Shown here: piece after piece, positions 30,807 to 62,895 of the stretch
How the letters are laid out: every line of letters begins with the position of its first letter
Position numbering within the stretch: position 1 is the first letter of the stretch
Source of the DNA: Deltaproteobacteria bacterium
Lineage (GTDB): Bacteria; Desulfobacterota; WTBG01; JAGOGO01
Assembly: GCA_017996625.1 (NCBI GenBank)
Contig: JAGOGO010000001.1
Coordinates: 2,336-66,335, forward strand
Direction: 5' to 3'
DNA length: 64,000 bases
Program-made: the position numbers and the translations under genes
The notes under the pieces: generated by a model
Told to the model about the DNA's origin: nothing
Databases searched by the model: none
What the model saw: the letters and a program-made list of their open reading frames with translations, nothing else

Positions 30807-32153
30807 ATGGAGCCACAACTCTTGAGGCAGTTTGAAGATCTTGTCAAAAAGAATATCGGCGTAACATCTTATAATCGTTGGTTTTCCCAAATCAAGCCCG
30901 AACGGATTGATGACCGAAAAGCAGTTCTTGCATGCCCTAATACGTTTGTTCTCGATTGGGTCAAACTTCATTACTATCCAATCATTGTGAAGACAATCCG
31001 AGAGTTGTTGGGAGAAACGGTGGCGGTGGAGCTCCTGGTGAAGGAATGTCCTTACGATGAAAACGGTGCAAGGATCAACACCCAGCAGCAGCGCTCACTT
31101 CCGGGAACAGAAAACTATTTGAATTGCCTGCCATTTGTAAATCAGGGATATTCATTCAGCAATTTCGTTGTCGGCCCGAGTAATCACCTGGCCTATGCTT
31201 CGGCCCTGGCGATAACCGAACCCGATTTCAGGCGTTACAATCCCTTTTTCATATACTCATCCGAGGGGCTCGGGAAGACTCATCTTTCAAGCGCCATGGG
31301 AGTGAAGATTTTCAATCACAATGCTGATGTCAAAATCTTCTATACAACCGCCGAGTGGTTCACCCATGAAATGATCCAGGCCCTACGAAAAAATCGGATC
31401 CTGGAATTCAAAGAAAGGTATCGGAAACACTGTGACGTTCTTTTTATCGAGGATATCCAATTTCTTCAGAAGAAAGAAAAAACCCAGGAAGAAATCTTTT
31501 ACACGCTGAATGCGCTGATTCAGATGGGAAAGCAGGTAGTGCTTACTGCGAATGCCAATCCCCGGGAGCTCAGCGACTTGAAATCTAATCTGAAATCGCA
31601 AATGGGAAGCGGGCTGGTAGTAGATATTCGGCAGCCCGATTACGAAACCAGGCGCGAAATTATTACCAAGAAATGTACTGAGGAGAAGGTTGAAATCTCA
31701 GATGATGCTGCCGATTTTATCGCCCGATCGATAACAAGCAACATTCGGGACTTGAAGAGTGCCTTGATCCATGTAATTGCCACTTCATCTCTGCTTGGCC
31801 AAGATATCACCATGGATGTGGTAAAGGAGAGTTTGAAGGGTTTTATAGAAAAGGCCAAAGTGATCGGTATCAATGAAATAAACAGCTTTATCGCCCAATA
31901 CTTCAAGATTTCGTTGGATCAGCTTCGCTCCAAATCCCGCAGTAGGACTGTTACCTATCCCCGGCAGATGTCATATTATTTTTGTCGGAAATATACCAAC
32001 AGTACATTGGCGGAAATCGGGAAGTGCTTCAACCGGAATCACTCATCAGTGGTACGGGCTCTGAATAAGTTCGAATCGAGCCTGCGCACTAATCGCAGTA
32101 TCCGTGACGCTGTCGACTTTTTGACCGAGAAGTTCGAAAAGAGCTATTTGTAG
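30807..32153 (+). CDS. dnaA: chromosomal replication initiator protein DnaA
   Basis: 448 aa. Domain I, AAA+ Walker A (SSEGLGKTHL), and Walker B (FIEDIQF) motifs. C-terminal DnaA-box-binding helix-turn-helix region (RSRTVTYPRQMSYYFCRKYTNSTLAEIGKCFNRNHSSV). Confidence 0.95.
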   Translation: MEPQLLRQFEDLVKKNIGVTSYNRWFSQIKPERIDDRKAVLACPNTFVLDWVKLHYYPIIVKTIRELLGETVAVELLVKECPYDENGARINTQQQRSLPGTENYLNCLPFVNQGYSFSNFVVGPSNHLAYASALAITEPDFRRYNPFFIYSSEGLGKTHLSSAMGVKIFNHNADVKIFYTTAEWFTHEMIQALRKNRILEFKERYRKHCDVLFIEDIQFLQKKEKTQEEIFYTLNALIQMGKQVVLTANANPRELSDLKSNLKSQMGSGLVVDIRQPDYETRREIITKKCTEEKVEISDDAADFIARSITSNIRDLKSALIHVIATSSLLGQDITMDVVKESLKGFIEKAKVIGINEINSFIAQYFKISLDQLRSKSRSRTVTYPRQMSYYFCRKYTNSTLAEIGKCFNRNHSSVVRALNKFESSLRTNRSIRDAVDFLTEKFEKSYL

Positions 32154-36168: not shown

Positions 36169-37182
36169 ATGACGTATGATCAAACAGATAAAGATTTCAT
36201 ACCGGGCTATCAGCGCCTGCGGCGATCCGGGGAGCTTGCCGAACGGATTCGCCAGGCGTACGAGCGGCTTTCCTGCTGCACACTCTGTCCCCGACAGTGC
36301 CGGGTTAATCGGTATCACGGTGAGCGAGGCTATTGCGGAGCTGGTGACTGTGTGAAAATAGCACGCTTCCTCCCTCACTTTGGTGAGGAGCCGCCCTTGA
36401 TCGGAATGCAAGGGGCCGGAACCATCTTCTTCTCGCACTGTAGTCTGAAATGCTGTTACTGTCAGAATTATCAGATTAGTCATCAGAGCTTGGGGCAGGA
36501 AACAACGGTCGTTGCTCTTGCACGGATCATGTGTGAGCTTCAGGAACAAGGGTGCGCCAATATTGATCTGGTAACTCCGACTCAGTATCTTCCTTTTATT
36601 TTGGATGCGGTTCGCCTCGCGGCAGAGAATGGCCTGATTATCCCTCTGGTATATAACAGCAGCGGGTATGAATCCCTGGAGACACTGCATCTTCTCGACG
36701 ACATCGTGGATATTTTTCTTCCTGATTGGAAATACAGCACCTCAGATCTGGCTGAGGAGTTCTCTCATGCTCCGGACTATCCTTCGGTATGTGAGGAGGC
36801 GGTGCGGGAAATGTACTATCAGGTGGGAGATCTTGTTGAAGACCCAAACGGACTAGCCCGCAGGGGGCTGATTGTTCGACATCTTGTCCTTCCCGGTTCT
36901 CTTGATAACACTGAACGTATCCTCAGGCGGATTGCTGAGCTGTTTCCAGACAGCATCCGAGTGAGTCTCATGTCGCAGTATGTGCCTTGCTATCAGAGTG
37001 AATTGCACCCGGGTCTCGATCGTCCTCTCACTGAAAGCGAGTACGGACGAGCCCGGGAAGTTCTGGAGGAGTGTGGTCTGGCTGAATGCTGGATCCAGGA
37101 GTTAGAAAGCCGTTGCCTTTTTTTGCCTGATTTTACCAAAGAGGATCCCTTTGGGGATACAAGTTCACGGGTCGAAGGTTAG
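36169..37182 (+). CDS. radical SAM protein, PflX-like (pyruvate formate-lyase activase homolog, COG1313 type)
   Basis: N-terminal auxiliary CxLCPRQC...GERGYCG motif followed by the radical SAM CSLKCCYCQN cluster. Confidence 0.7.
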   Translation: MTYDQTDKDFIPGYQRLRRSGELAERIRQAYERLSCCTLCPRQCRVNRYHGERGYCGAGDCVKIARFLPHFGEEPPLIGMQGAGTIFFSHCSLKCCYCQNYQISHQSLGQETTVVALARIMCELQEQGCANIDLVTPTQYLPFILDAVRLAAENGLIIPLVYNSSGYESLETLHLLDDIVDIFLPDWKYSTSDLAEEFSHAPDYPSVCEEAVREMYYQVGDLVEDPNGLARRGLIVRHLVLPGSLDNTERILRRIAELFPDSIRVSLMSQYVPCYQSELHPGLDRPLTESEYGRAREVLEECGLAECWIQELESRCLFLPDFTKEDPFGDTSSRVEG

Positions 37183-43631: not shown

Positions 43632-44801
43632 ATGATGAACCATAGTACACTCTCACCTCTGTCATCCAGTCAGCGAAGCAGACGACCGTGGGCCTGGGCT
43701 CAATTGGCAACCGGCCTCCTGCTGGCCGTTGTTTCAGGAATCCTTCTTTTCCAAAGGGTGGAACCTTTTGCGTCCGAGTTCTACCTCTTTATCTGGTGGT
43801 CCTATATTATTGCTATCGATGCAGTCACTTATCTCATTCAAAACAACTCGCTTATTATCAGCAGGACCAGAGAATTCCTGATCATGCTGCCCTGGTCGGT
43901 TGCGTTCTGGCTGCTATTTGAGATGGTGAACCTGCGCCTAGATAACTGGCACTACATCAATGTCGCCAGCAACATCTGGGTCCGCTGGCCGGGCTATTTT
44001 CTCGCCTATGCCACAGTGCTTCCGGGTATTTTTGAGACCGCAGAAGTGCTTGGTTGCCTCGGATTGTATCACAGGGTGCGGTGCCGGCAGCGGGTGATCG
44101 CTCCAGTGCGGTTTTTTGCGTTCTATGGGACCGGAATTCTTTTTCTTGCTTTGAGCCTGGCAGCTCCCCGCTTCTGCTTTCCCCTGATCTGGCTGGCGTT
44201 CATTTTTCTGCTGGAACCGCTAAACTATACACATGGCGGCTTATCGTTGCTGCGCGACTGGGAGTTGGGGAAGCCGAAAAATCTGCTGCTTCTGCTCACT
44301 GCGGGACTTGTCTGCGGAGGGCTATGGGAGCTCTGGAACTTCTGGGCCGGCGCTAAATGGATCTACACGGTTCCATTCTTCGACGAACTCAAGATTTTTG
44401 AAATGCCGCTTGCGGGGTTTCTCGGATTTCCTCCCTTTGCGGTTGAGTGCTACGTGATGTACAATTTTATTTCGCTCTTCCGTGGGAAGAGAACCTGGTT
44501 GAAAGACAATCCACCTCAAACCTCATACCGACGGTTATCCCCTCGCGTGACGCTCAGTGTTGCGGCTGTAATGATACTTTTCTTCGCTATCGGCTTCCAG
44601 GTTCTTGACCGTCATACGGTGAAATCGTTTGCTCTGCGGCCAACCCTGAGCACCAGCAAGACACCATCTGCCGTGTTGTCCCGCGAAACGGGAATCATCG
44701 TCACGAACTCGGTGCCTTGCATCGTATGTTTTGCCGATGCCCAGGCTAACCAGTTTTGGTTGGAAAGCCGGAAAGTGCTTGCAAACAACACTCGTTGGTG
44801 A
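43632..44801 (+). CDS. hypothetical integral membrane protein
   Basis: 389 aa with 8-10 predicted hydrophobic helices and W/F-rich loops. No family recognised. Confidence 0.45.
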   Translation: MMNHSTLSPLSSSQRSRRPWAWAQLATGLLLAVVSGILLFQRVEPFASEFYLFIWWSYIIAIDAVTYLIQNNSLIISRTREFLIMLPWSVAFWLLFEMVNLRLDNWHYINVASNIWVRWPGYFLAYATVLPGIFETAEVLGCLGLYHRVRCRQRVIAPVRFFAFYGTGILFLALSLAAPRFCFPLIWLAFIFLLEPLNYTHGGLSLLRDWELGKPKNLLLLLTAGLVCGGLWELWNFWAGAKWIYTVPFFDELKIFEMPLAGFLGFPPFAVECYVMYNFISLFRGKRTWLKDNPPQTSYRRLSPRVTLSVAAVMILFFAIGFQVLDRHTVKSFALRPTLSTSKTPSAVLSRETGIIVTNSVPCIVCFADAQANQFWLESRKVLANNTRW

Positions 44802-46748: not shown

Positions 46749-47081
46749 CCACTCAGTTGGTGACGCTTGTACCTCTAGAAACGCCACGTGCTTGCACCTG
46801 CCGCCAGTATCTGCTTTTCTCAATATTGTTGTCCGCTTGTTTTGCTCAGGATCTTGTTCCACGGCTCGAATCATGATGTTCTCCTCTTCTCCAGCATAGG
46901 AGATTTCCACCAGTATAAGTCGGTATGATTCCCTCACCGACAGCCGGCTGTTATCTGCTCCTGTTGAAATATGGTATAGTGAAAGCAGCTGCGGACTCGC
47001 AGGATATTGATCTGTAGATACTATCAACACAGCATTCTCAAAGAGAGTTCCCGCTGGAACAACGTTTCAAAAAAGCATGCC

Positions 47082-47795
47082 ATGATTCAGTTGTACAATG
47101 TCGACAAAACGTATTCCTCCCGGTACCCGGCGCTCAGTGACATCAATCTGGATATCGGTAAGGGAGAATTCGTTCTGATTGTCGGGCCAAGCGGAGCTGG
47201 GAAGACGACGCTTCTCAAGCTAATGTTTCTCTCAGAAATGCCTTCCCGCGGGCGCGTTGTGATCAATGGAATGGACACCCGGAAGATCACTGGACCGCAG
47301 ATTTCACTCCTGCGCCGCAAAATCGGATTTGTGTTCCAAGACTTCAAGCTGCTCCCTCACCGATCGGTATATGACAATGTTGCAATAAGCCTGGAAGTGC
47401 TGATGATGAAAAGGAGGCTGGTCAAACGCCGCGTTCAACAGGTTCTCAAGCACGTGGGCCTTCTGAATCGTGCTGATGCCATACCGCTGATCCTATCGGG
47501 AGGGGAACAGCAGCGGGTGGCCATTGCCCGGGCTGTGGTCAAGGATCCATTGATTTTACTGGCTGATGAGCCTACGGGAAATCTGGATCTGGATATCACC
47601 AGAGACATTATGAAGCTTTTCAAGATCATTAATTCCTGGGGAACCACGATTGTAATAGCGACCCATAACAAGGCGCTCCTTGAGTACCGTCCGACCAAAG
47701 TGATCGCCCTTAAGAAAGGGGCTATTCAGGAAGTGTTTGTTTCCAGCAGGATGGCGAACTCGGAGGATACCAGTCTTCCATCCGGTGGTGAGTAA
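47082..47795 (+). CDS. ftsE: cell division ATP-binding protein FtsE
   Basis: Start at internal ATG ([11 protein letters not shown]). Walker [13 protein letters not shown] signature [14 protein letters not shown], Walker [13 protein letters not shown]. Confidence 0.9.
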
Positions 47796-47797
47796 CC

Positions 47798-48700
47798 GTG
47801 GCATTTAGATACCTTTTCTACTTTATCGGGAAAGCCCTACAGAACAGCAGGCACTTTCTGCTTATCAATCTCATTACCGTAGGGATCATCAGCCTCTCGC
47901 TTGTGGTCGTAAGTGTGTTCCTGATAGTGTTCTTAAATCTTCGTACCTACCTGGATACCTGGCGAGGTCAGATTCAAATCAGCGCATACTTGGCTGACGA
48001 TGCCCTGGATCCAACGTCGTTGTCCTCGTTAGGGGACTCGCTCCTGAATTTTCCTGAGGTGAAGAACATCACTATCATCTCCAAAGATGATGCCCTTCAG
48101 TTTTTGAAGCGTAGCTTCCCTCATCAGGCTATTGCCCTCGAAAGCATGCAGAAGAATCCCCTTCCGGCCTCCATTGACATTCAGCTTAATGAGAGCTACG
48201 ATAATTTAAATACAATTAAGGAACTTGCCGAAAGGATCCGGAACCTCTCAGGTGTTGAAGAAGTCGAATATGGTGCTGCATGGCTGGAAGGGTATGCACA
48301 AATGCTCGACTTCTTCGTGATGGCAGCGTTTGTTGTCGGAGCAGTGGTCATTTTAGCCACCGTATTTATTATCTCCAATACAATCCGCCTCACAATATAT
48401 GCCCGCAAGGAAGAAATCGAAGTCCTGCGCTTTGTCGGAGCTGCTAATTCCTTTATCAGAGTACCTTTCTATGTTGAGGGAATTCTTCAGGGTCTAGCCG
48501 GCAGCCTGATTGCTTTGGCACTGGTTTATGGCTGTTTCTGCCTTTTCACGAATTGGATTAGTCAGTCTTCTCCTTTTCCTGTTCACCTCATGCAATTCTC
48601 TTTCCTTTCGTCTTCGTATCTGCTGCTGGTCATTGTGGGAGGAATGCTGACTGGTTTGCTGGGAAGCTGGTGTTCACTGGGGAGATATTTACGCATGTAG
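47798..48700 (+). CDS. ftsX: cell division permease FtsX
   Basis: 300 aa, GTG start 3 nt after the ftsE stop. One TM helix, periplasmic loop, then three C-terminal TM helices typical of FtsX. Confidence 0.9.
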   Translation: MAFRYLFYFIGKALQNSRHFLLINLITVGIISLSLVVVSVFLIVFLNLRTYLDTWRGQIQISAYLADDALDPTSLSSLGDSLLNFPEVKNITIISKDDALQFLKRSFPHQAIALESMQKNPLPASIDIQLNESYDNLNTIKELAERIRNLSGVEEVEYGAAWLEGYAQMLDFFVMAAFVVGAVVILATVFIISNTIRLTIYARKEEIEVLRFVGAANSFIRVPFYVEGILQGLAGSLIALALVYGCFCLFTNWISQSSPFPVHLMQFSFLSSSYLLLVIVGGMLTGLLGSWCSLGRYLRM

Positions 48701-48797
48701 CAGATGGTTGAAGAGGCAGCCGAGTGTTATTGTGGGGAACGCGTCCGGATTCATTAGGAAAGCAGGCTGACCGTCCGGCAGCCGCCATCAGGTTACT

Positions 48798-49982
48798 ATG
48801 CAGTATCCCGTTTGTTTGTTTTTCTCATTTACTTTCCTTCTCGTTACGCAGCTGATCGTTCCCTGCTGGAGTGGGGAGGATAAGACAGCTGATACCGCCA
48901 CTCGTCTGGGCCGGGGAAAAAGTGAGCTGCAGGGCTTACAGAAGAAGCTTCGCAGCGAGCAAGCTCAGCTTAAGGAGTCCCGGGTAAAAGAAAAAAAAGT
49001 CGTCTCGGAACTAAACCGCATCGAAAAAGAACTGGTGCAAAAGGAGCAATCACTTCGCACCTACGAGCAGCAGGCAAAGAAGAAGAAATCACAGATTGAC
49101 CTGCTTGCTATTCGCTTGCGCGACCTGCAAATGAGGGTGAAAGAGGATGAGAATACCCTGTCTCTCGCTGCCCGAGCACTTTATCAACTGAGCCGTACCA
49201 CCATGGCCAGGGTGTTCTTCTCGGGGTCAAGCTTTTCTGACGCGGTTCGCCAGCACACGTACCTGACAAAGGTTATTGATTATAATGCTGGTTGTGTTGA
49301 TCATTATACGCATGTCCTGAAAGAGATCGAGCGTGATCGACAGATGTTGAAGGAAGATAGCTCAAAGCTTGCTGTCCTGGCTGATGAGGTTCGCTCGACG
49401 CAGGAAGAGATTCTGCGACACAAACAAGGCAAAGCCACTCTGTTGGCGAAGGTGAAGTCTGAAAAAGAAGCTCACGCCAGTGCAATTCGGGAACTCGAGA
49501 AAGCTTCCCGGCAGCTTCAGGCGCTGATTGATCGGCTGGAAAAGAGTGGATCGATCTCAGTGCCTTCAAGCACAAAAGGTTTCGCCTCTGGCAAAAGGAA
49601 ATTCAATTTTCCGGTTGATGGTGATATCATAACTTACTTTGGAAAACAGGAAGACAAAGACTTTTCTACCATTTCCTTCAATAATGGGATCGAAATCAGG
49701 GCTCCCCAGGGCAGTCCAATCAAGGCAATTTTCTCAGGAGCCGTCATTTATGCAAACTGGTTTAAAGGATACGGCAATCTGCTTATCATTGACCACGGAG
49801 CAGGCTACTATTCCCTTTCTGGTCATGCATCATCACTTGCCAAGAAGGTCGGCGAAACAGTAAAAGAAGGAGATACCATAGGGTATGTTGGGGATACGGG
49901 ATCACTCAAGGGTGCTAATCTTTATTTTGAAATCAGGCACCAAGGCAAGCCGCTCAATCCCCTCGACTGGCTCAAACATTAA
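48798..49982 (+). CDS. murein hydrolase activator EnvC-like (coiled-coil plus M23/LytM domain)
   Basis: Signal/TM, long coiled-coil (LQKKLRSEQAQLKE...), C-terminal degenerate M23 domain (GIEIRAPQGSPIKAIFSGAVIYANWFKGYGNLLIIDHGAGYYSLSGH). Directly follows ftsEX. Confidence 0.8.
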   Translation: MQYPVCLFFSFTFLLVTQLIVPCWSGEDKTADTATRLGRGKSELQGLQKKLRSEQAQLKESRVKEKKVVSELNRIEKELVQKEQSLRTYEQQAKKKKSQIDLLAIRLRDLQMRVKEDENTLSLAARALYQLSRTTMARVFFSGSSFSDAVRQHTYLTKVIDYNAGCVDHYTHVLKEIERDRQMLKEDSSKLAVLADEVRSTQEEILRHKQGKATLLAKVKSEKEAHASAIRELEKASRQLQALIDRLEKSGSISVPSSTKGFASGKRKFNFPVDGDIITYFGKQEDKDFSTISFNNGIEIRAPQGSPIKAIFSGAVIYANWFKGYGNLLIIDHGAGYYSLSGHASSLAKKVGETVKEGDTIGYVGDTGSLKGANLYFEIRHQGKPLNPLDWLKH

Positions 49983-50025
49983 ATAACAGTATCAGCAATC
50001 TTTTTGTAGAACAAGGAGCTCAAGC

Positions 50026-51441
50026 GTGAACGAACGAAAACAGCAATCGTCCTGGATTCTCTTGATCGCCGTTTTTCTTCTCGGTTTCCTACTTAACGAG
50101 TACAGCGGATCGCTCGTATCAGCGGTTACCGACAAGAGCTATGAGAATCTCAAGGTTTTTAGCGACGTTCTGTATATTATTCAGAAAGACTATGTCGAAG
50201 AAACAAAAGTCGATGACCTGGTTGAAGGGGCGATCAAAGGAATGCTGAACATGCTTGATCCCCACTCCGCGTATATGCCTCCGGACATGTATCAGGAGAT
50301 GCAGGTTGAGACTAAAGGGAGTTTTGGTGGACTCGGCATAGAACTCACGGTAAAGGACGGTACGCTTACCGTTGTGGCACCGATTGAAGATACCCCTGCT
50401 TTCCGTGCAGGCATTAAGGCCGGAGATCAGATCGTCAAAATTGAAGGTTCATCGACTAAGGACATGACGATTATGGATGCAGTCAAGAAACTGCGCGGGA
50501 AAAAAGGTACGACGGTGACGATATCAATCATACGTGAGGGTTTGACTGAGCCGAAAGATATCAAGATTACCCGGGACACCATTGAAATCAAGAGCGTGAA
50601 GTCGAAGATTATTGATGAGCGCATCGGATATATTCGTATAACTCAGTTTCAGGAACACACCGCCAGAGACTTCAGCGAGGCACTGAAAGGTTTCGAACAG
50701 CAGGTGGCGAAGCCGATAGGCCTCATTCTTGATCTGCGTAACAATCCTGGAGGCCTCCTCGAACAGGCAGTTGAGGTGAGCGATGAATTCGTTGATTCTG
50801 GGCTTATTGTATACACTGAAGGCCGAACCCCCGACCAGCGGATGGAGTTCCGCGCGCGGCCAAATGACAAAAAGCGCGATTATCCGATCATCGTTTTGGT
50901 TAATGCTGGAACCGCCAGCGGTTCGGAGATTGTAGCCGGAGCACTACAGGATGACGAACTGGCGTTGATTATGGGAACTACTACCTTTGGGAAAGGTTCA
51001 GTTCAGACGGTGATACCACTAGAGAACGGGGCTGGTATGCGGCTGACAACAGCCAAGTATTTTACTCCCAAGGGACGACTTATTCACGCCAAAGGGATTG
51101 AGCCGGACATCGTTGTCGAAGACAGCATCGAGCAGATTGCGAAGGATATGCCGGGAGTGCGGTTTATAAGGGAAAAAGATCTGCAGGGAGAAAAAGATGA
51201 GGAAGCTACTTCTGATCAGAAAAGCAAAGAGGGTGTGAACAATGAGCCGGCAAAAGAAGGAACAAATGATCGGAATAGTGATAAGCCTGCTGGATCGACG
51301 CTGTCTCCGGAATCGCAGAAAAAAGAAGACGGTCCGGACAGTGATCCGCCATTGGATCGTGCAGTCGAACTGCTGAAAAGCTGGAAAGTCTTTCGGCAGA
51401 TCGGGAATGGCTCCACAACCAAGATCGATAAGGCATTGTGA
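50026..51441 (+). CDS. ctpA: carboxyl-terminal processing protease (S41 family)
   Basis: GTG start. PDZ domain (GLGIELTVKDGTLTVVAPIEDTPAFRAGIKAGDQIVKIEG), catalytic motifs S41 (LDLRNNPGGLL, GTASGSEIVAGALQD, TFGKGSVQ). Long E/K/D-rich C-terminal extension. Confidence 0.9.
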   Translation: MNERKQQSSWILLIAVFLLGFLLNEYSGSLVSAVTDKSYENLKVFSDVLYIIQKDYVEETKVDDLVEGAIKGMLNMLDPHSAYMPPDMYQEMQVETKGSFGGLGIELTVKDGTLTVVAPIEDTPAFRAGIKAGDQIVKIEGSSTKDMTIMDAVKKLRGKKGTTVTISIIREGLTEPKDIKITRDTIEIKSVKSKIIDERIGYIRITQFQEHTARDFSEALKGFEQQVAKPIGLILDLRNNPGGLLEQAVEVSDEFVDSGLIVYTEGRTPDQRMEFRARPNDKKRDYPIIVLVNAGTASGSEIVAGALQDDELALIMGTTTFGKGSVQTVIPLENGAGMRLTTAKYFTPKGRLIHAKGIEPDIVVEDSIEQIAKDMPGVRFIREKDLQGEKDEEATSDQKSKEGVNNEPAKEGTNDRNSDKPAGSTLSPESQKKEDGPDSDPPLDRAVELLKSWKVFRQIGNGSTTKIDKAL

Positions 51442-51451
51442 GGTATATGCG

Positions 51452-51805
51452 ATGAACCCTCAAATTGTGTATGTGATTGTTGCCAGCCTTGGCGGGATCG
51501 GCATAATAGTCCTCCTGGTGTTTCTCATACCGGTGCTTGTCCAGGTGCGGAAGACCGCTCAGCAATTCGAGGTGACTGCTGCGACATTAGAAAAGGTACT
51601 CGATCAGGATTTTAGAGAATTGCTTGATCAGGGTGAGAAAGTTTTACAGGAATTGGAAGACTTGCCGCCATGGGTAAAAGATAAACTTGCCCGCTTTCCG
51701 AGCGAACGCGTTTTACCGGCTATGCCTCTCGTAGGCGGCTCGCTGGGAAGGACGCTGTTTCTTTGGGCGCTTCGGGGAGGTTGGCAGCTTTTTAAGAAAA
51801 AATAA
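51452..51805 (+). CDS. DUF948 domain membrane protein
   Basis: Start at internal ATG. One TM helix (IVYVIVASLGGIGIIVLLVFLIPVLV) followed by a QVRKTAQQFEVTAATLEKVLD helical region typical of DUF948. Confidence 0.55.
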   Translation: MNPQIVYVIVASLGGIGIIVLLVFLIPVLVQVRKTAQQFEVTAATLEKVLDQDFRELLDQGEKVLQELEDLPPWVKDKLARFPSERVLPAMPLVGGSLGRTLFLWALRGGWQLFKKK

Positions 51806-51859
51806 CACAAGGAATAATCTTGCGCTATATTAAGTACTTCAATGAAAGGGGGTGCGGTT

Positions 51860-52183
51860 ATGAGTGACAATCGTTCTGGATTCGGCTTTGCGGCATTGGC
51901 GTTGTCGTTTATCAGCGGTGGAATCGTGGGGGCTGCTTTGGGAGTGCTTTTTGCACCTCGAAGCGGGCTGGAGACCCGAGAGATGATCAAGGAACAGGCG
52001 GATGAAGCATGTGTCCGGATCCGGGATGCTGCTGATACGATCATAGAGCGCGCAGAGGAACTGGCTGCCACCGGTCGGGGGAAATGGGGTGATGCTCGCG
52101 AGGTTGTGCATGCCTCAGTCGAACGGGTAAAAGACAGCCTGAACAAGAAAATCGAAGAGGCTGCGGAAATTGACAAGCCGTGA
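51860..52183 (+). CDS. YtxH-like domain protein
   Basis: Start at internal ATG (MSDNRSGF) behind an AAAGGGGG ribosome-binding site. N-terminal hydrophobic segment GFGFAALALSFISGGIVGAALGVLFAP, followed by a charged helical tail. Confidence 0.55.
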   Translation: MSDNRSGFGFAALALSFISGGIVGAALGVLFAPRSGLETREMIKEQADEACVRIRDAADTIIERAEELAATGRGKWGDAREVVHASVERVKDSLNKKIEEAAEIDKP

Positions 52184-52249
52184 CCGAAGAGGCCACTCTT
52201 GAATCGTCCGGTGCTGAACGGAGGCACTGCATTAAGGGAATGTTCTGCT

Positions 52250-52279
52250 AAATAGGCGCCTTGGCGCCTATTTTTTTTG
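52250..52279 (+). terminator. rho-independent terminator after ytxH-like gene
   Basis: AAATAGGCGCC-TTG-GCGCCTATTTTTTTTT: perfect 8-9 bp GC-rich stem followed by a T8 run. Confidence 0.8.
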
Positions 52280-52435
52280 ACCTACCCCCTATGATATACT
52301 ACCAGTAGGTGGTGTGACCTGCTCTCTCCTTTCTTCAGTCAACGGGGTTGTATGGGATCTCCCCGCGTATCCAATCTCTTTGCAATCCCGCAGTAGTCAT
52401 ACTCTACTCCACCAACAAGATGCTATTCGCAGAGC

Positions 52436-53479
52436 ATGCTCGATATGAATCGTTGGAGGTGCGCTTGTATGGAAAAGCTCAGCAGGTCAATTGACATCAT
52501 GATCTGGATATCTTTAGTGATGTTCTTATCGCTTATATGTCTTGAGGAAAATCACGCTCAGGGAGGCGATTTGCCCGGTGATGGTGATATTGCCGGCTAT
52601 AATGCTGTTATCGGTACTAGCGGAGAAGGCGCTAGTGCACATAGTGCATCGTACTATGCCATCATAGCTGGCATCGCTGACTATCCTGGCTCTCTTAATG
52701 ATCTTGAATACACGGATGATGATGCCCTCGATATGCGAGATGCTCTGCTGCAGTATTCGAACTGGAATCCGTCCCATATCCAGCTCCTTCTGGATGGTTC
52801 GGCATCAGTGCAAGGGATTTACGACGCAATACAGAACGTGGCTGAGATCATGACTCGTAATGATATTCTACTCTTTTACTTCTCAGGACATGGCACTAAT
52901 AAGACCGATAAAGCTCCACTTGATGAAGTTGATGGGAAAGACGAGTACCTGTGCGCTTATGATGACGGCATTAGTGATGATCAGCTCAGCGCTTGGCTTG
53001 GAACACTTGATACAAGTCATGTGGTTGTCATGCTGGACACCTGTTTCAGCGGTGGACAGATCGAAGACGATGGGGGTGCTCGCTCGCGCACTTTTCCGGG
53101 TACGTTGGAAACTATACTTCGTGGTGACGGTTTTGCCGCCGATTTTCAGGTGCCTCGGCAAGGGGCAAAAGATTTTGAAGAAGATGACGGCTATATTGTT
53201 CTCACTGCCTGCGACGACAATCAGCTTTCTATGGAATTGTCGTCGCTGGGCAATGGCCTGTTCACCTATTTAACCCTCATGGTATTTGACAAGAATTGCG
53301 GCAGCGGCCTCGATCAGTCGCTTTCCGCCGAAGATATCGGCAAGCGGACGCTATGGGCCTTCTGGGCGATGTATGCAGCCAATCCTTCGCTCTACTCATA
53401 TTTAGGTCAGATGCCTCAATTTCTCGATGGGTACCCGGTGGGTTCTCCCACCAGTGCCGAGCTGCCACTATGTTACTAG
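52436..53479 (+). CDS. caspase-family (peptidase C14) protein with N-terminal signal/anchor
   Basis: His-Gly (LLFYFSGHGTNK) and Cys (VVVMLDTCFSGG) catalytic dyad in canonical C14 spacing, IAGIADYPG P20-like start, signal-like N-terminus (IMIWISLVMFLSLICL; alternative start MEKLSRS around 52469). Confidence 0.7.
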   Translation: MLDMNRWRCACMEKLSRSIDIMIWISLVMFLSLICLEENHAQGGDLPGDGDIAGYNAVIGTSGEGASAHSASYYAIIAGIADYPGSLNDLEYTDDDALDMRDALLQYSNWNPSHIQLLLDGSASVQGIYDAIQNVAEIMTRNDILLFYFSGHGTNKTDKAPLDEVDGKDEYLCAYDDGISDDQLSAWLGTLDTSHVVVMLDTCFSGGQIEDDGGARSRTFPGTLETILRGDGFAADFQVPRQGAKDFEEDDGYIVLTACDDNQLSMELSSLGNGLFTYLTLMVFDKNCGSGLDQSLSAEDIGKRTLWAFWAMYAANPSLYSYLGQMPQFLDGYPVGSPTSAELPLCY

Positions 53480-53889
53480 AAATCAACTTCTTACGTATGG
53501 AGTGATGCCAAGCATCCCTTAACAGACGGTCGGAGAGTGAAACCGCTACTACTCTCGGGCCGTTTTTTATTTGCACGCATTATTCTTTACTGCACTTTGT
53601 CGGTTGACAATGATATTATTTACTTGAACTCTTGTGATTTTTTCGTTACGTTTTACTATCTTCGTACACAGCCTCAGGAGGTGCGATTGCTTCTCAGGAA
53701 GCTGGTTTTCTGTAAATGATGCTTGCAGCTTTCCAAGTTTTTGTTTATAAAAACTATTTTAGATATCTTCGGGAGAAAGAAGTCATCAGGCGGTAAGAGT
53801 CGTGCTTGTGTGAACGGTAAAGAATGTTGTGTCACCGGCAGTAATCACTGTAGAAGCTTAACGTGAGTATAAACCGAAAGGCAGGAACC

Positions 53890-58312: not shown

Positions 58313-60580
58313 TCATTTTGTTTTGCACGTGAATATACCATCCCAATTTTCCGGCACCGATGTTTGCCGGCACGCTTGGCATCGGGAGAGGTAAACACGC
58401 GCCGGCTGGTCGTGCGGATTTATTTCCAATACCTGCCGAAACGAGTCTTCTGCCTGTCTCCATTCCTGATTGCGATAGAAACTAAGTCCCTGATGAAAGC
58501 GCCGCACCATCCGGCAAACACGTTCAGGCATATCGAGGTATCCCATCAGTTCGTAGATCCGGAGCGGAAGCTTTTTCCCAGTAACCAGCACGTCATCGAG
58601 TTCTCGACAGGAAAAATGATTTTTTACCTGCTCATAGGTATATTCACTGATAATGATGTGTGTGCCATACAGCTTGTTTAGTCCTTCCAGCCGAGAGCCG
58701 AGGTTGACCGCGTCACCTAGTACGGTATAGTCGAAACGCAGTGCCGAACCCATGTTGCCCACTGCCATTATGCCAGTGTTGATACCAATCCCGATATCGA
58801 ACGAAAGGCTTCCTTCGGCTGCCCACTTTCCCTGAAGCATATGGAGCTTCGTGACCATGTCGAGTGCTGCACGACAGCATCGGAGCGCGTGATCATGCTG
58901 CTCAATCGGAGCACCAAAGATAGCCATGATTGCGTCGCCGATATACTTATCCAGTGTTCCCTCCTGTTGAAAAATGATTCTGGTCATAGCGGTGAAATAG
59001 TCGTTCAGCAGCCGCACCAGTTCGTCGGGAGAAAGCTGTTCCGAGATGGTCGTGAAGCCCCGAATATCCGCAAAGAGTACGCTCAACTCTTTTTTTTCGC
59101 CGCCGAGCTGCAGTTTTTCCGGGTGTCTGAGCATCTCTGCCACTACGGTTGGTGGAACATATACACTGAAGGTATCGCGAATCTTTGCTTTCTCTCGCTC
59201 TTCAGTGCGGTAGCAAAAGAGGGTTATTCCGGTGTATACCGAAGCAATGGTCATCATCGGATAGACAAGATTGAGCCAGATGCGGAGCGTATGAAAAATA
59301 ATGTGATCAAGAAAAAGGTACAGCGCTATAAATGCACCTGTCCCCAGTATGCCGTAGAGTGCGCGAATACGAGGCAGAATAAGCGAGTACGCCAGCCCCA
59401 GAATGATGATTATTCCGTATTCGATTAGCGAACACCAGGCTGGACGGCGGAGGAAGTCTCCCTGCAGGACAGTGTCAATGATGGTGGCGTGGATTTCCGG
59501 CCCAGGAAAAACACCGTCCAAGGGAGTCGAACACCAGTCGGTGATTCCTTTTGCAGTGGCCCCAATAATAACCATCTTATCTTGAAACGTTTGCGGATCA
59601 ATTCGCTGGTTGATTACATCCGCGCATGAGTATGAAGGAAAGGTGCGGCTTGGCCCGCGATAGTGTACCAGCATGAAACCATTTTCATCAGTAGGAATCT
59701 CTTGGCCTCTGATCCAGACCCCGCGGATGCCCTGTTCCTCGATCGTGAGGATCGGCTCTTCGCCAAAGTAGCGATGCAGCATCCGGAGAGCGAGAGGAGG
59801 AAAGAATTCGCCTCCGCATATCATTACGAGTGGAACCTGACGGACGACGCCGTCGGTGTCGGGACAGATGTTGAAGTAGCCTGAACCCTGGGCAGCGGCG
59901 CAGAAGTATGAGAGATTGGCTTCGGCAGCATAGGCTTCAGGAAAACGTATCTTTGTGGCGGCAGAAGAACCGTACTTTACAGCATACGCTGATCCAATAA
60001 CGCTTTCGAAGTTCAGATGCTGTCGTCCCGGAGCAATATGTCGCGCCTCCTGAGCGTCGGTGTGAAAAAAATATCCCAGAATCACCCGCCCTGATCGAGC
60101 GATGCTTTCAGCCAGCACGTGATCTGTATCAGCTTTTTCTTGTATCTGTTTCAGATATGTCGCAAGAGCAGCATTCTTCACAGCTAGTTTGCCGATTTCC
60201 TGCCGGATCGCTTGTACCTGCTGCACAATGCTGTTTTCATCCGGTTCGGAAAAAACGATATCAAACCCGACAACCCCGGCTCCGTAGCTGCTCAGGATGC
60301 TGATCAATTCGGCAATGCGGTTGCGCGGCCACGGCCAGCGGCCTATCTCATCCACACTCTTTTCATCAATGGCTACTATAACAACTCGGTCGAGAGGCTT
60401 GGTTTTCGCTTGTGTTCTCAGACGCAGATCGTAGAGATTTCTTTCGAACTGATCCAAGAAACCAATTTGCAGAAAACGTACCATGAGGCAGCAGATCGTT
60501 ATGATGATCCCAATTCGAAAAGGGGTAACTGTCGGCAGGTGGCTGACGATGAAGCGTCTTGAGAGCCTAAACGAGCGCAT
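58313..60580 (-). CDS. CHASE2 sensor domain-containing class III adenylate/guanylate cyclase with C-terminal TPR
   Basis: 755 aa. N-terminal TM plus CHASE2 periplasmic domain, TM cluster, cyclase homology domain (LSVLFADIRGFTTISEQL...YIGDAIMAIFGAP), C-terminal TPR-like segment. Confidence 0.85.
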   Translation of the reverse strand: MRSFRLSRRFIVSHLPTVTPFRIGIIITICCLMVRFLQIGFLDQFERNLYDLRLRTQAKTKPLDRVVIVAIDEKSVDEIGRWPWPRNRIAELISILSSYGAGVVGFDIVFSEPDENSIVQQVQAIRQEIGKLAVKNAALATYLKQIQEKADTDHVLAESIARSGRVILGYFFHTDAQEARHIAPGRQHLNFESVIGSAYAVKYGSSAATKIRFPEAYAAEANLSYFCAAAQGSGYFNICPDTDGVVRQVPLVMICGGEFFPPLALRMLHRYFGEEPILTIEEQGIRGVWIRGQEIPTDENGFMLVHYRGPSRTFPSYSCADVINQRIDPQTFQDKMVIIGATAKGITDWCSTPLDGVFPGPEIHATIIDTVLQGDFLRRPAWCSLIEYGIIIILGLAYSLILPRIRALYGILGTGAFIALYLFLDHIIFHTLRIWLNLVYPMMTIASVYTGITLFCYRTEEREKAKIRDTFSVYVPPTVVAEMLRHPEKLQLGGEKKELSVLFADIRGFTTISEQLSPDELVRLLNDYFTAMTRIIFQQEGTLDKYIGDAIMAIFGAPIEQHDHALRCCRAALDMVTKLHMLQGKWAAEGSLSFDIGIGINTGIMAVGNMGSALRFDYTVLGDAVNLGSRLEGLNKLYGTHIIISEYTYEQVKNHFSCRELDDVLVTGKKLPLRIYELMGYLDMPERVCRMVRRFHQGLSFYRNQEWRQAEDSFRQVLEINPHDQPARVYLSRCQACRQTSVPENWDGIFTCKTK

Positions 60581-60768: not shown

Positions 60769-62895
60769 CTACTTGCAAGCCGCACGGGAAAACCATCCGG
60801 CATCAGTGTTGGCAGGAGCTTCGATTTCGCCGGGCATAAACATCCGGGCAGGAATAAGGAGCTCCACGGTCTGATCGCTCACGTTCTGTATCCAATATCC
60901 TCTCCATGGCTCCAGAAGATCTGAAGGAACATAGGTGTTGTTTTCATATTTCCAGAGCACCGGAGTAGTCCAGATATTCTGCGGTGCGGTCACAAGTGTT
61001 GTGAATGCTCCATTGCGTACCCATACTTCACGCCAGGCAACCGGAAAAGGGAAAGGGCATCCGATCTGGACATATCCTGGGGGGATAGAGAGAACGAAAT
61101 TCTTTTCCATGCTTACAGGAAAGCCGTTTGCGCTCAGGGGCGTGTCCCAGGTGGTAATAAGCCAATACCCTATGTCAGGAGTGACGTCAGGGACATCGGG
61201 ATATTCATGGTACGCTGTATCCTTTGGTGAATACCAGAAAAGCCTCCAACGTGAAGGATCATATGGTCCTAGTTCATCCTTCAGCACCGCCACCGGATCA
61301 GGGTTGGAAGGATACAGCGGGAAGGAAATCATATCGTATACCATGTCAGGAAAAGGCGTGGGGGTCATGCAACATACTTCGCCCTGAGCATCAGTAACAA
61401 ATCCGAAAACCGGATAGGCTGCTGCACCATATACGTTACGGGCAACTACCGTCCAAAAATAGCATTGATAAGGAGCAAGAAATATTTCCTCCGGCCGGGG
61501 TCCAGAGCTTGCGTCGACACAGAAGAGTGGCTCGTTGAGATCACGTATGGTATGCTCGACAGAAGCAAGAAGAGGATCGCGACTTACATAGAGATCGTAG
61601 AGAGTAGCGTTTTGTGCAGCTGGCCATGAGAAACAGAGGTCATCAGGGCCTATTCCGACAGCCCCCTGTCCCGGATAGAGCTGTTGTGCGGGCAAGGGAT
61701 CGGGAATCAGGGGCAATGAGGGGTAAACGAAAACGGTAGCCGTTTCCTGGTCCATCAGAGATCCGTCACTCACTTCAAAGGTGATGAAATGGGATCCGAC
61801 CTGTTCCAAGTGAGGAGTCCATTGGAATACGGCACTTTCAGCAGAAAAGGATGCCCCGGATGGAAGGCTTTCGGCTCGAAACATTAGTGGATCCATATCC
61901 GGATCTGTGGCGGTGACCGAAAAACTGAGCGTGGCGCTTGACATGATCCGGTGATTTCCTATTGGGTTAAGCATCGGAGGTTGATTGAGATTATTCACGG
62001 TGATGGTAGTTGATGCATAGGCCATGCTTGTACCATCCGAAACGAAAAAAGCTGCCTCATAGGTTCCGGCCTGATCAAACGTTGGCGTCCATGAAAACAG
62101 AGGCGGTGTCGTGAATGTATCGAATGAAGCGCCGGTAGGCAGACTTGTAGCTCCATAGGTGAGAGGATCGCTGTCCGGATCCTGGCCGACAACTGGTATC
62201 GTCAGCAGCACAGTCTCGGTAGCCTGGTAGTGTTCAGCCATGGTAAGGAGTGGCGGATGGTTTACGTTGACAACCGTGACGGTCATGGTCTTGGAAGCAA
62301 CTGCATCTCCGTCGCTGACCACAAAAGTGATGATGTAGGTGCCGGCTTGAGCGTATGTGGGTGTCCAGGAAAACGTCTGACCAACGAACGTTGCGCCCTC
62401 AGGAAGATTAGACGCCGAGAAATGCAGGATGTCTCCGTCGGCGTCAGAAGCGGAAATGGTACGGCGGATTCTCTCGTTTTCATTCACTGTGCAGCTGCCA
62501 AGGGAATCTATGGCGGGTGGTGTGTTTGCGCTGAAATATGCCATAACCGAATAAACGCCATCCACCAGCAGCGTTGCCGGATTGGAGGTGGAATTCAGGC
62601 TGCCGCTCCAGTGACTGAACCGTTGCCCCGATTCTGGATAAGCCCTGAGCGTGACCGACGTTGGTGAAACAAATGCTTCATTGCAGTCTCCCGGACAGGC
62701 AATATACATGCCCGTGTCCCGAACCGAACCGGACCCGGAAATGTTTACGGAAAGATCATAGAGAAATCCGTACACCTCTGTGGGCACAAGAGGGAAGAAA
62801 CCTGTCAAAATGAAAACGGAGAGTAAAACGAGGTTTTTTGAGGTCGGTTTGTCGATTTGCACTTCCGGGCCTCCTTCGAGAAAACAGTTGTTCAC
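60769..62895 (-). CDS. secreted protein with tandem Ig-like (He_PIG / cadherin-like) repeats
   Basis: 708 aa. Signal peptide (LVLLSVFILTGFFPLVP), then at least three repeats of a ~95-aa module (DADGDILHFSASNLPEGATF...FSWTPT; DPDSDPLTYGATSLPTGASF...FSWTPT; DPDMDPLMFRAESLPSGASF...FQWTP). C-terminal W/Y-rich beta-rich domain ending in CK. Confidence 0.6.
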   Translation of the reverse strand: MNNCFLEGGPEVQIDKPTSKNLVLLSVFILTGFFPLVPTEVYGFLYDLSVNISGSGSVRDTGMYIACPGDCNEAFVSPTSVTLRAYPESGQRFSHWSGSLNSTSNPATLLVDGVYSVMAYFSANTPPAIDSLGSCTVNENERIRRTISASDADGDILHFSASNLPEGATFVGQTFSWTPTYAQAGTYIITFVVSDGDAVASKTMTVTVVNVNHPPLLTMAEHYQATETVLLTIPVVGQDPDSDPLTYGATSLPTGASFDTFTTPPLFSWTPTFDQAGTYEAAFFVSDGTSMAYASTTITVNNLNQPPMLNPIGNHRIMSSATLSFSVTATDPDMDPLMFRAESLPSGASFSAESAVFQWTPHLEQVGSHFITFEVSDGSLMDQETATVFVYPSLPLIPDPLPAQQLYPGQGAVGIGPDDLCFSWPAAQNATLYDLYVSRDPLLASVEHTIRDLNEPLFCVDASSGPRPEEIFLAPYQCYFWTVVARNVYGAAAYPVFGFVTDAQGEVCCMTPTPFPDMVYDMISFPLYPSNPDPVAVLKDELGPYDPSRWRLFWYSPKDTAYHEYPDVPDVTPDIGYWLITTWDTPLSANGFPVSMEKNFVLSIPPGYVQIGCPFPFPVAWREVWVRNGAFTTLVTAPQNIWTTPVLWKYENNTYVPSDLLEPWRGYWIQNVSDQTVELLIPARMFMPGEIEAPANTDAGWFSRAACK

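Follow-up and report, generated by a model that had tools for sequence, protein, structure and literature searches.

Prokaryotic proteins in which an N-terminal transmembrane (TM) helix or signal peptide precedes a metacaspase domain have already been catalogued (Asplund-Samuelsson et al. 2012, PMC3501461). The protein described here (the 'window protein', the window being the whole 64,000-nucleotide stretch of DNA that was analysed) has the same architecture, a TM or signal-peptide segment with a single Peptidase_C14 domain, and shows no difference in kind. No biochemical characterisation was found in the literature searched, either for that architecture or for the subfamily of exported prokaryotic metacaspase-like proteases. 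The best structural match is GSU0716 of Geobacter sulfurreducens (PDB 3bij), a structural-genomics protein from a related phylum that forms a compact bacterial single chain of p20 and p10-like halves (Foldseek E = 1.4e-15, TM-score 0.64-0.66 on the target, ∼22% identity; profile match 2.7e-24). Eukaryotic metacaspases (AtMC4, 6w8s; AtMC9, 8a53; Yca1, 4f6o; TbMCA2, 4af8) have in common with the window protein, at 15-19% identity, the dyad context SGHG...D-x-C-x-SGG, an acidic loop after the His (DE.DG.DE), an invariant DD pair, the S1 Asp residues and a similar p10 motif. Unlike them, the window protein contains neither the Pro/Zn-finger prodomain of type I nor the long linker of type II, is predicted to be exported rather than cytosolic, and belongs to a family in which the fourth Ca2+-ligand position is unconserved and an EF-hand-like loop lies inside the p10-like half.

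Orthocaspases are prokaryotic C14 proteins with p20 only, defined by the missing p10 domain (PMC6426788). The Microcystis aeruginosa orthocaspase MaOC1 (Klemencic et al. 2015, as cited in PMC6426788) is a prokaryotic C14 protein with which the window protein might be expected to have Arg-type P1 specificity and autoprocessing in common; orthocaspases by definition have no p10, whereas the window protein has a p10-equivalent half. The 'orthocaspase' label is therefore doubtful for the window protein, although the p10 HMM of the defining paper uses a 30-bit cutoff and its HMM-score criterion might still bin the protein as an orthocaspase (PMC6426788). Gingipains (C25) and clostripain (C11) are secreted clan CD Arg/Lys proteases, similar to the window protein in its predicted export and predicted basic P1 preference; they belong to other MEROPS families, and Pfam and PDB searches gave no C25 or C11 match to the window protein. 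Gingipains carry T9SS-type C-terminal domains, as do some of its relatives.

We favour the reading, at a probability of about 0.7, that the window protein is an exported, standalone metacaspase-like protease that acts outside the cytoplasm, is expressed from its own promoter, and is linked neither to its neighbours nor to defence. The features of the locus are as follows (L001 and L088 are two related loci).

51452..51805, + strand: DUF948-like small membrane protein, 117 aa (Pfam DUF948 28.7 bits, below the cutoff of 37.2; exact NCBI product 'DUF948 domain-containing protein')
51860..52183, + strand: YtxH-family small membrane protein, 107 aa, last gene of the upstream cluster (Pfam YtxH 57.8 bits, cutoff 37.5; exact product 'YtxH domain-containing protein')
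52250..52281, + strand: intrinsic terminator with a 10-bp stem, 4-nt loop and T-run (terminator scan); closes the upstream operon
52292..52300, + strand: putative extended -10 element TGATATACT of the protease gene, read from the sequence (TGGTATACT in L001 and L088)
52323..52365, + strand: CTCTCCTTTCTTCAGTCAACGGGGTTGTATGGGATCTCCCC, a 5' leader block conserved across three loci that may be a cis-regulatory or an anti-Shine-Dalgarno element (three-locus comparison)
52455..52459, + strand: Shine-Dalgarno GGAGG, 9 nt before the ATG at 52469, kept in L001 and L088
52469..53479, + strand: protease coding sequence (caspase-fold, C14, metacaspase-like), 336 aa plus stop (open reading frame, Pfam Peptidase_C14, exact NCBI product, PDB profile search)
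52469..52558, + strand: predicted signal peptide or signal anchor MEKLSRSIDIMIWISLVMFLSLICLEENHA, with putative cleavage after NHA (hydrophobicity, homolog comparison)
52559..52645, + strand: Gly/Asp/Ser-rich disordered spacer between export signal and catalytic domain (pLDDT < 50 at residues 42-67; unconserved in the alignment)
52646..53065, + strand: p20-like catalytic half (family alignment, AtMC4 HMMER alignment, high pLDDT)
53066..53128, + strand: disordered inter-subunit linker with Arg218 at 53087-53089 (pLDDT < 50 at residues 211-231)
53129..53440, + strand: p10-like half with the TACDDNQLSME motif and an EF-hand-like loop at 53300-53335 (Pfam, AlphaFold, Foldseek)
53441..53476, + strand: short C-terminal tail ending ELPLCY (alignment columns 340-347)

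Gene boundaries and transcription signals

The open reading frame of the protease runs over 52436..53479 (+ strand) and encodes at most the 347 aa given in the first-pass annotation. While the frame itself stands, ATG 52469 is the likely start and would give a protein of 336 rather than 347 aa, since GGAGG (52455-52459) is located 9 nt upstream and the 336-aa form is found in NCBI, JGI and ENA. The 347-aa form had no exact match among the database proteins searched. In NCBI the exact 336-aa product is named 'caspase family protein' and comes from a Thermodesulfobacteriota MAG. A scan of representative-genome contigs with the protease gave a best match of only 43% identity, indicating that it has no close relative among the representative genomes scanned. 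The GC content across the gene (0.465-0.505) is the same as that of its flanks; recent horizontal acquisition, which we also considered, is unsupported by any compositional anomaly.

A strong terminator and an extended -10 element near position 52290 had both been proposed upstream of the gene, and both were recovered. The terminator scan placed a 10-bp hairpin and T-run at 52250-52273, and the same hairpin and T-run are kept in L001 and L088. The -10 element TGATATACT is located at 52292-52300 and is conserved in the three related loci in the form TG(G/A)TATACT; it was missed by a two-hexamer promoter scan, which did not list it and found no -35 element at proper spacing. On these computed signals, with a predicted extended -10 that closely follows the upstream operon's terminator, the protease gene is its own transcription unit.

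The leader block that follows is near-identical in the three loci, whose proteins share only 53% identity. RNAalifold pairs an invariant UCUCC with the GGAGG Shine-Dalgarno in 3/3 loci, without covariation. The fold energy of the leader was no better than that of shuffled sequences (z = -0.18), and a scan of the whole window at Rfam gathering thresholds, leader included, gave no match; no tRNA genes were detected when the window was scanned for them. A metagenome scan for TATACT-N(18-30)-TCTCCYTTCTTCAGT returned 21 matches, which we attribute to chance because no match codes for a homolog of C14 or S41 and identity does not extend past 17-18 nt.

Fold, catalytic residues and export

The proposal that the gene encodes a C14 caspase-like protease with an intact catalytic dyad was borne out. 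Pfam Peptidase_C14 (PF00656) matched residues 74-288 over profile positions 3-195 of 233 (66.8 bits, E = 3e-18, cutoff 21.4), and no other Pfam domain was found besides this one and a single N-terminal hydrophobic helix; in the profile searches that had been called for, C14 matched with unmutated catalytic residues and CHAT did not. A PDB profile search matched only metacaspases and GSU0716 (AtMC4 at 4e-28, Yca1, AtMC9 and TbMCA2). The computed AlphaFold model (mean pLDDT 77.8) is of high confidence at residues ∼68-210 and 250-335, and its top Foldseek matches (3bij, AtMC9, AtMC4, and fungal and trypanosome metacaspases) cover whole chains over ∼300 aligned columns, with probability 1.00 for GSU0716, metacaspases, MALT1 and caspase-9. 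We conclude that the protein is a single-domain cysteine endopeptidase of the caspase/hemoglobinase fold, in MEROPS family C14 and its metacaspase-like branch.

The first-pass annotation had described a ∼130-aa C-terminal extension without a recognisable fold. This description does not hold: the Pfam match reaches residue 288, and AlphaFold and Foldseek identify the region as the p10-like half. When a profile of residues 226-347 was searched against PDB and Pfam as a candidate separate domain, only EF-hand-loop similarity and weak C14 matches were returned, and the candidate was rejected on the structure. Type I-like metacaspases are recognised by a p10 that follows p20 at a distance of under 66 aa and has a conserved Cys/Asp motif. 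Here the p10-like half adjoins p20 structurally across a linker of ∼20-40 aa and its TACDDNQLSME motif resembles SGCxDxQTSAD; C-terminal halves on their own match Pfam C14 weakly (4/21 members, best E = 6.8e-4). The family profile of this region also matches EF-hand proteins. In the window protein alone the EF-hand-like loop is degenerate, with G289, G291 and D300 where 28/29 sequences have D, N/D and E. The penultimate Cys of the C-terminal tail is common to the six closest homologs only.

Both catalytic motifs are intact, FSGHG containing His152 (52889-52891) and DTCFSGG containing Cys203 (53042-53044), and these two residues would form the catalytic dyad. In the family alignment the His is present in 28/30 sequences and the Cys in 29/30, while FSGxG, D201 and G206 are invariant; Asp96 is kept in 29/29 and Asp201 in 30/30. 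Asp96 aligns with the Asp of the C-V-N-D stretch of AtMC4 in the HMMER alignment, and Asp201 is positioned two residues before the catalytic Cys. The pair would probably be the equivalents of Asp95 and Asp211 of TbMCA2. Those are the reported acidic residues of the TbMCA2 S1 pocket (PMC4357240). From the computed residues we infer that Asp96 and Asp201 would form an acidic S1 pocket typical of metacaspases, which should direct cleavage after Arg or Lys. The low-confidence linker contains a K/R at position 218 that is basic in 28/28 aligned sequences and is followed by x-[LF]-P-G-T, making Arg218 a candidate autoprocessing site; the protease would probably be made as a zymogen.

The allosteric Ca2+ site of TbMCA2 comprises four Asp residues (D173, D189, D190 and D220). 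The window protein has an acidic loop (D158-E170) as well as the invariant pair D181/D182, and the position of the fourth ligand, seven residues after the catalytic Cys, is occupied by Glu210 (Lys in most relatives). Because this position is Glu and the EF-hand-like loop is degenerate, Ca2+ dependence is not predictable for this protein.

The hydrophobic, export-type N-terminus that had been reported was likewise evident, with a Kyte-Doolittle mean of 2.83 over 12 residues, a hydrophobic core of 16-18 residues, K and R in the n-region, and the sequence NHA|QG after the core. A hydrophobic N-terminal segment is found in 143/173 family members, and the closest homologs have NQA or AQA after the core. 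Since the core is long and an Asn occupies the -3 position, an uncleaved anchor appears as plausible as a cleaved signal. A lipoprotein reading was rejected, as Cys35 has no lipobox (Ile at -1, Ser at -3) and is unconserved in the closest homologs. We infer from the computed N-terminus that the segment would direct Sec-dependent translocation over the cytoplasmic membrane. The site of catalysis would then be periplasmic or extracellular, with the catalytic domain either cut free near NHA|QG or held by the uncleaved anchor and a flexible spacer of ∼30 residues.

Neighbouring genes and alternative explanations

DUF948- and YtxH-like genes upstream had been part of the original description, which also raised the conservation of DUF948-YtxH-C14 across genomes. 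The YtxH assignment is secure at 57.8 bits, while that of DUF948 is upheld by the NCBI product name with a Pfam score below cutoff. The two come last in a conserved ftsEX-M23-S41 cluster, and DUF948 homologs come after S41 in L001, L089, L111, L112 and L113. A presence/absence matrix of eight related loci contained all four combinations: DUF948, YtxH and C14 occur together in one relative only (L001), C14 without the pair in L088, and the pair without C14 in L089, L111, L112 and L113, while L087, a close relative whose S41 is 71% identical, has none of the three. Because the genes occur apart in relatives, we rejected the adjacency as a functional module; the protease gene appears functionally independent of DUF948 and YtxH, and represents a monocistronic add-on in a small subclade.

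The genes of the three closest C14 homologs all come right after the ftsEX-M23-S41 cluster, which makes a link to envelope remodelling conceivable. The protease might be coupled to the upstream envelope cluster (ftsE-ftsX-M23/EnvC-like-S41/CtpA-like-DUF948-YtxH) as a periplasmic enzyme acting on hydrolase regulators or small membrane proteins: in the window as in L001 and L088 its gene directly follows the S41 cluster, the products of that cluster are all envelope proteins, and the protease too is predicted to be exported. We nevertheless regard such coupling as unlikely, given that a terminator and promoter boundary separates the protease gene from the cluster, that L087 is without C14, and that the four relatives with the pair but no C14 keep the cluster as well. 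Distant C14 homologs (39-48% identity) have unrelated neighbours, and the three syntenic cases are mutual closest relatives, for which common descent suffices.

Caspase-fold proteases are frequent in conflict or programmed-death systems (CRISPR type III, CBASS, gasdermin, EACC1), and the first-pass annotation had hinted at such a role. A conflict or cell-death effector with a partner encoded elsewhere would be consistent with a match to the generic 'caspase' model of PADLOC (1.8e-16) and with the EACC1-associated caspase model (NF047832) being the best NCBIfam match, but the former spans only profile positions 3-158 of 453, corresponding to the shared catalytic core, the latter reaches 61.3 bits where its cutoff is 140, and Pfam gave no CHAT match in the window protein. 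The export signal would carry the domain out of the cytoplasm, and extracellular domains occur in relatives. The domain survey also indicated that the window is core-chromosome housekeeping DNA (EF-G, transketolase, FtsEX, HU, BioA/BioF, DnaA and Mur ligase); no neighbour is conserved among the homologs, and no defence genes were found in the window or beside the homologs examined. Domain searches of the window agreed with the earlier observation that no sensor or effector gene is adjacent to the protease. The PADLOC, NCBIfam and Pfam results, together with the domain survey and homolog neighbourhoods, largely refute the conflict-system reading, and we consider its probability close to negligible. 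It is also very improbable that the protein is a non-catalytic pseudo-protease or binding module: Tyr/Ser pseudo-orthocaspases have been described (PMC6426788) and the EF-hand-like loop is degenerate here, but His152, Cys203, Gly151/153, Asp96 and Asp201 are all intact.

For the exported, standalone protease that we favour, the job would be to process or degrade proteins of the envelope or the environment by extracytoplasmic proteolysis, rather than to serve intracellular suicide or defence signalling. The gene encodes an ordinary, already annotated, probably exported caspase-fold cysteine protease whose neighbours do not identify its substrate.

Implications for the exported metacaspase-like family

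At E <= 1e-30 the subfamily numbers 4,467 cluster representatives, and extracellular domains are fused to most of its members. It occurs in Dehalococcoidia, Planctomycetota, Desulfobacterota and ANME-1/Alkanophaga archaea. Domains fused to relatives of the window protein include PPC, Laminin_G_3, FlgD_ig/CHU_C (T9SS), CARDB, PKD, fn3, FG-GAP, Big_9, Calx-beta and dockerin. The window protein adds a member from an uncultured Thermodesulfobacteriota lineage to this known architecture. A more speculative proposal, and in our estimate quite an improbable one, is that it is a minimal, single-domain representative of the large exported metacaspase-like subfamily and that the leader UCUCC, by sequestering the Shine-Dalgarno sequence, may control its expression. 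If true, the protein would be a tractable model for extracellular caspase-fold enzymes in anaerobic sediment communities, and the leader possibly a new translational control element.

For the window protein, these results remove the reading of a bacterial caspase as an agent of death or defence, and reassign its supposed separate C-terminal domain to the caspase fold as the other half. Uncultured anaerobes are rich in exported caspase-fold proteases, and a small standalone enzyme would offer a convenient entry point to their biochemistry.

The protease gene and its start site

The open reading frame at 52436–53479 (+) is real and codes for the motifs FSGHG (His152) and DTCFSGG (Cys203). The first-pass annotation had read it as a 347-aa protein; the coding frame holds, and a 336-aa form beginning at ATG 52469 appears to be a better choice than one beginning at 52436. 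We prefer this start because GGAGG lies 9 nt upstream of it and because the exact 336-aa product, named "caspase family protein [Thermodesulfobacteriota bacterium]", is present in NCBI, JGI, ENA and Logan; the collection in which it was found lacks a 347-aa form. Residue numbers used here are those of the 347-aa form, and subtracting 11 gives those of the 336-aa form. The gene, from an uncultured Thermodesulfobacteriota bacterium, has the same GC content as its flanks. It is ordinary, monocistronic and annotated before now, and its product is predicted to be an exported, metacaspase-like cysteine protease.

51452–51805: DUF948-like gene, 117 aa (NCBI name "DUF948 domain-containing protein"; Pfam 28.7 bits, under the cutoff of 37.2)
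51860–52183: YtxH gene, 107 aa (Pfam 57.8 bits)
52250–52273: terminator hairpin, with a T-run
52292–52300: extended −10 element
52455–52459: GGAGG
52469–53479 (+): protease gene (caspase fold, Peptidase_C14)
53300–53335: EF-hand-like loop (residues 289–300), canonical D-x-N/D-x-D/N-G-...-E in 28/29 aligned relatives

Caspase fold and catalytic residues

The C-terminal part of the protein, previously described as lacking a recognisable fold, is instead the p10-like half of the same caspase domain, as indicated by the extent of the Pfam match, the AlphaFold model and whole-chain alignment by Foldseek. Pfam Peptidase_C14 matches residues 74–288 (profile positions 3–195 of 233, 3e-18). A PDB search with a profile of 30 family members returned metacaspases and GSU0716 and nothing else (AtMC4, 4e-28; GSU0716, 2.7e-24; then Yca1, AtMC9 and TbMCA2). 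The AlphaFold model, built from the 30-member family alignment (mean pLDDT 77.8), is of high confidence at residues ∼68–210 and 250–335 and of low confidence at residues 42–67 and 211–231. Its best Foldseek matches are GSU0716 (3bij), AtMC9, AtMC4 and the Candida, yeast and trypanosome metacaspases, followed by MALT1 and caspase-9, with ∼300 aligned columns and entire target chains covered.

The p10-like half holds the sequence TACDDNQLSME (similar to the metacaspase p10 motif SGCxDxQTSAD), a helix (NGLFTY), an EF-hand-like loop and a Q-x-P-Q strand. Across the family the consensus of the loop is D-x-N-x-N-G-E-L-S-A-E-E, and the family profile matches calcium-binding proteins. Only in the window protein, among 29 aligned sequences, are loop positions 1, 3 and 12 Gly, Gly and Asp (G289, G291 and D300) rather than D, N/D and E, which points to a site that is probably non-functional. 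The six closest family members (the window protein, ELPLCY at 53462–53476, and homologs P0002–P0006) end in an (E/S)-L-(P/T)-x-C-x tail; the Cys position is Gly in more distant relatives, which often run on into FlgD_ig/T9SS-type domains.

In the family alignment His152 is found in 28/30 relatives and Cys203 in 29/30. The two exceptions have lost catalytic residues (homolog P0016, His to Asp; homolog P0015, Tyr/Ser, substitutions of the kind described for pseudo-variants (PMC6426788)). Asp201, two residues ahead of the catalytic Cys, is invariant (30/30), as is Asp96 (29/29), which aligns with the Asp of the C-V-N-D stretch of AtMC4. Asp96 and Asp201 would be the equivalents of Asp95 and Asp211 of TbMCA2. 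On this mapping, Arg/Lys specificity at P1 is a reasonable prediction for the window protein, Asp95 and Asp211 being the reported S1 residues of TbMCA2 (PMC4357240). The loop following the catalytic His (D158, P161, D163, E164, D166, D169 and E170), together with the invariant D181/D182, matches the acidic loop of metacaspases; at Cys+7, a Ca2+ ligand in TbMCA2, the window protein has Glu and most relatives have Lys. Position 218, in the disordered linker, is Lys/Arg in all 28 of 28 aligned sequences and is followed by x-[LF]-P-G-T, making it the clearest candidate for a self-cleavage site that would activate the enzyme.

Predicted export and family architecture

The 336-aa protein begins with MEKLSRSIDIMIWISLVMFLSLICLEENHA, followed across the proposed cleavage site by QGG. 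Basic residues precede a hydrophobic core of 16–18 residues (Kyte-Doolittle mean 2.83) and a small residue at −1, a site where NQA or AQA is found in the closest homologs. A comparable hydrophobic segment is present in 143 of the 173 family members examined, the exceptions being mostly 5′-truncated gene calls. Given the long core and the Asn at −3, the segment would be compatible with either a cleaved signal or an uncleaved anchor.

With a threshold of E ≤ 1e-30, an exhaustive HMM search returned 4,467 cluster representatives. The best family matches are mostly long, multidomain proteins carrying PPC, Laminin_G_3, FlgD_ig/CHU_C (type IX secretion tails), LVIVD, fn3, CARDB, NHL, PKD, FG-GAP and Big_9 domains; Calx-beta and dockerin domains came from the first search. 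The family appears to be exported or surface-located, with the window protein representing the catalytic domain alone. This architecture is already known: an N-terminal helix or signal peptide joined to a metacaspase domain was catalogued in 2012 for 46 of 671 surveyed prokaryotic metacaspase sequences (PMC3501461), and the window protein is a member of that type.

Genomic neighbourhood and distribution

Relatives of the locus were reached via the adjacent S41 protease. In all eight loci tkt-ftsE-ftsX-M23-S41 lies upstream, as far as contigs extend.

Genes following S41 in the window and related loci, with S41 identity.
Window: 100%; DUF948, YtxH and C14 present; next HU-bioA-bioF
L001: 73%; DUF948, YtxH and C14 present; next HU-bioA-bioF
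L088: 70%; DUF948 and YtxH absent; C14 present, immediately after S41
L087: 71%; DUF948, YtxH and C14 absent; HU immediately after S41, no remnant
L112: 66%; DUF948 and YtxH present, C14 absent; next, other genes
L089: 65%; DUF948 and YtxH present, C14 absent; next, other genes
L111: 64%; DUF948 and YtxH present, C14 absent; next, other genes
L113: 60%; DUF948 and YtxH present, C14 absent; next, other genes

Among these relatives, the DUF948-YtxH-C14 neighbourhood of the window recurs only in L001. From this pattern of presence and absence we conclude that, in this lineage, the ftsEX-M23-S41 cluster usually ends with DUF948-YtxH, and that C14, carried by three close relatives, is a separate addition; the protease gene is not linked to DUF948/YtxH. 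The latter are the last two genes of the (tkt)-ftsE-ftsX-M23-S41 cluster in 6/8 Thermodesulfobacteriota loci (window 47007–52183; L001, L089, L111, L112 and L113), which suggests that their products share a function with the FtsEX/EnvC/CtpA-type envelope machinery.

The terminator and extended −10 promoter reported ahead of the protease gene are both present, the former recovered by a terminator scan and the latter as TGATATACT, kept as TGGTATACT in two related loci. A two-hexamer promoter scan of the region does not report the −10 at 52292–52300, because no −35 lies at the proper spacing. Both elements (−10 consensus TG(G/A)TATACT) are near-identical in the window, L001 and L088, as is a leader block of ∼45 nt, CTCTCCYTTCTTCAGTCAACGRGGTTGTATGGGATCTCCC, which starts CTCTCCYTTCTTCAGT. 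This non-coding DNA (52250–52365; L001 5330–5430; L088 1990–2090) is more conserved than the protein, the three proteins being 53% identical. In 3/3 loci RNAalifold places an invariant UCUCC opposite the GGAGG Shine-Dalgarno, a pairing that suggests a possible anti-Shine-Dalgarno switch but offers no covariation to test. The stability of the leader is not out of the ordinary, no Rfam family matches it, and a metagenome scan with its motif gave chance matches only.

Elsewhere the window encodes core housekeeping functions (EF-G, glycolate-oxidase-like subunits, transketolase, HU, BioA/BioF, ParA-like ATPase, DnaA, MgsA, BioB and Mur ligase); given the DnaA gene, at 30807–32153 (+), the chromosomal replication origin may be close to the window. 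The region upstream of HU (53700–53800; ATGCTTGCA.CTT.TCAAGTTTTTGTTTATAAAAGGATTTTTAG), probably the HU promoter/operator, shows strong conservation across the window, L001 and L087, the last without C14. A 755-aa CHASE2-adenylate/guanylate cyclase sensor protein (58313–60580 (−)) neighbours a 708-aa protein with He_PIG/Big_9/cadherin-like Ig domains (60769–62895 (−)). At E ≤ 1e-5, no Pfam family matches the two sizeable ORFs at 43632–44801 (+) (389 aa) and 36169–37182 (+) (337 aa).

A role in conflict or programmed death, as first hinted at for the protease, finds no support in profile searches, predicted export or homolog neighbourhoods. The EACC1-type caspase model of NCBIfam scored 61 bits, below its cutoff of 140, a PADLOC defence match covered the shared catalytic core only (158/453 positions), and the Pfam search of the window protein gave no CHAT match. 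The domain is predicted to be exported and its homologs have no conserved partner gene; those at 39–48% identity have unrelated neighbours in L002, L003, L004 and L006. The protease gene is not linked to any conflict system.

The relatives that a scan of representative genomes turned up share ≤43% identity and come from Dehalococcoidia, Pirellulales, Anaerolineae and ANME-1/Alkanophaga archaea. Relatives at ∼38–40% identity in archaea (Alkanophagales/Alkanophaga and ANME-1), Dehalococcoidia and Planctomycetota (loci L004, L005, L015, L019 and L020) imply that this putatively exported protease would have spread horizontally, across domains, among anaerobic sediment or hydrothermal organisms.
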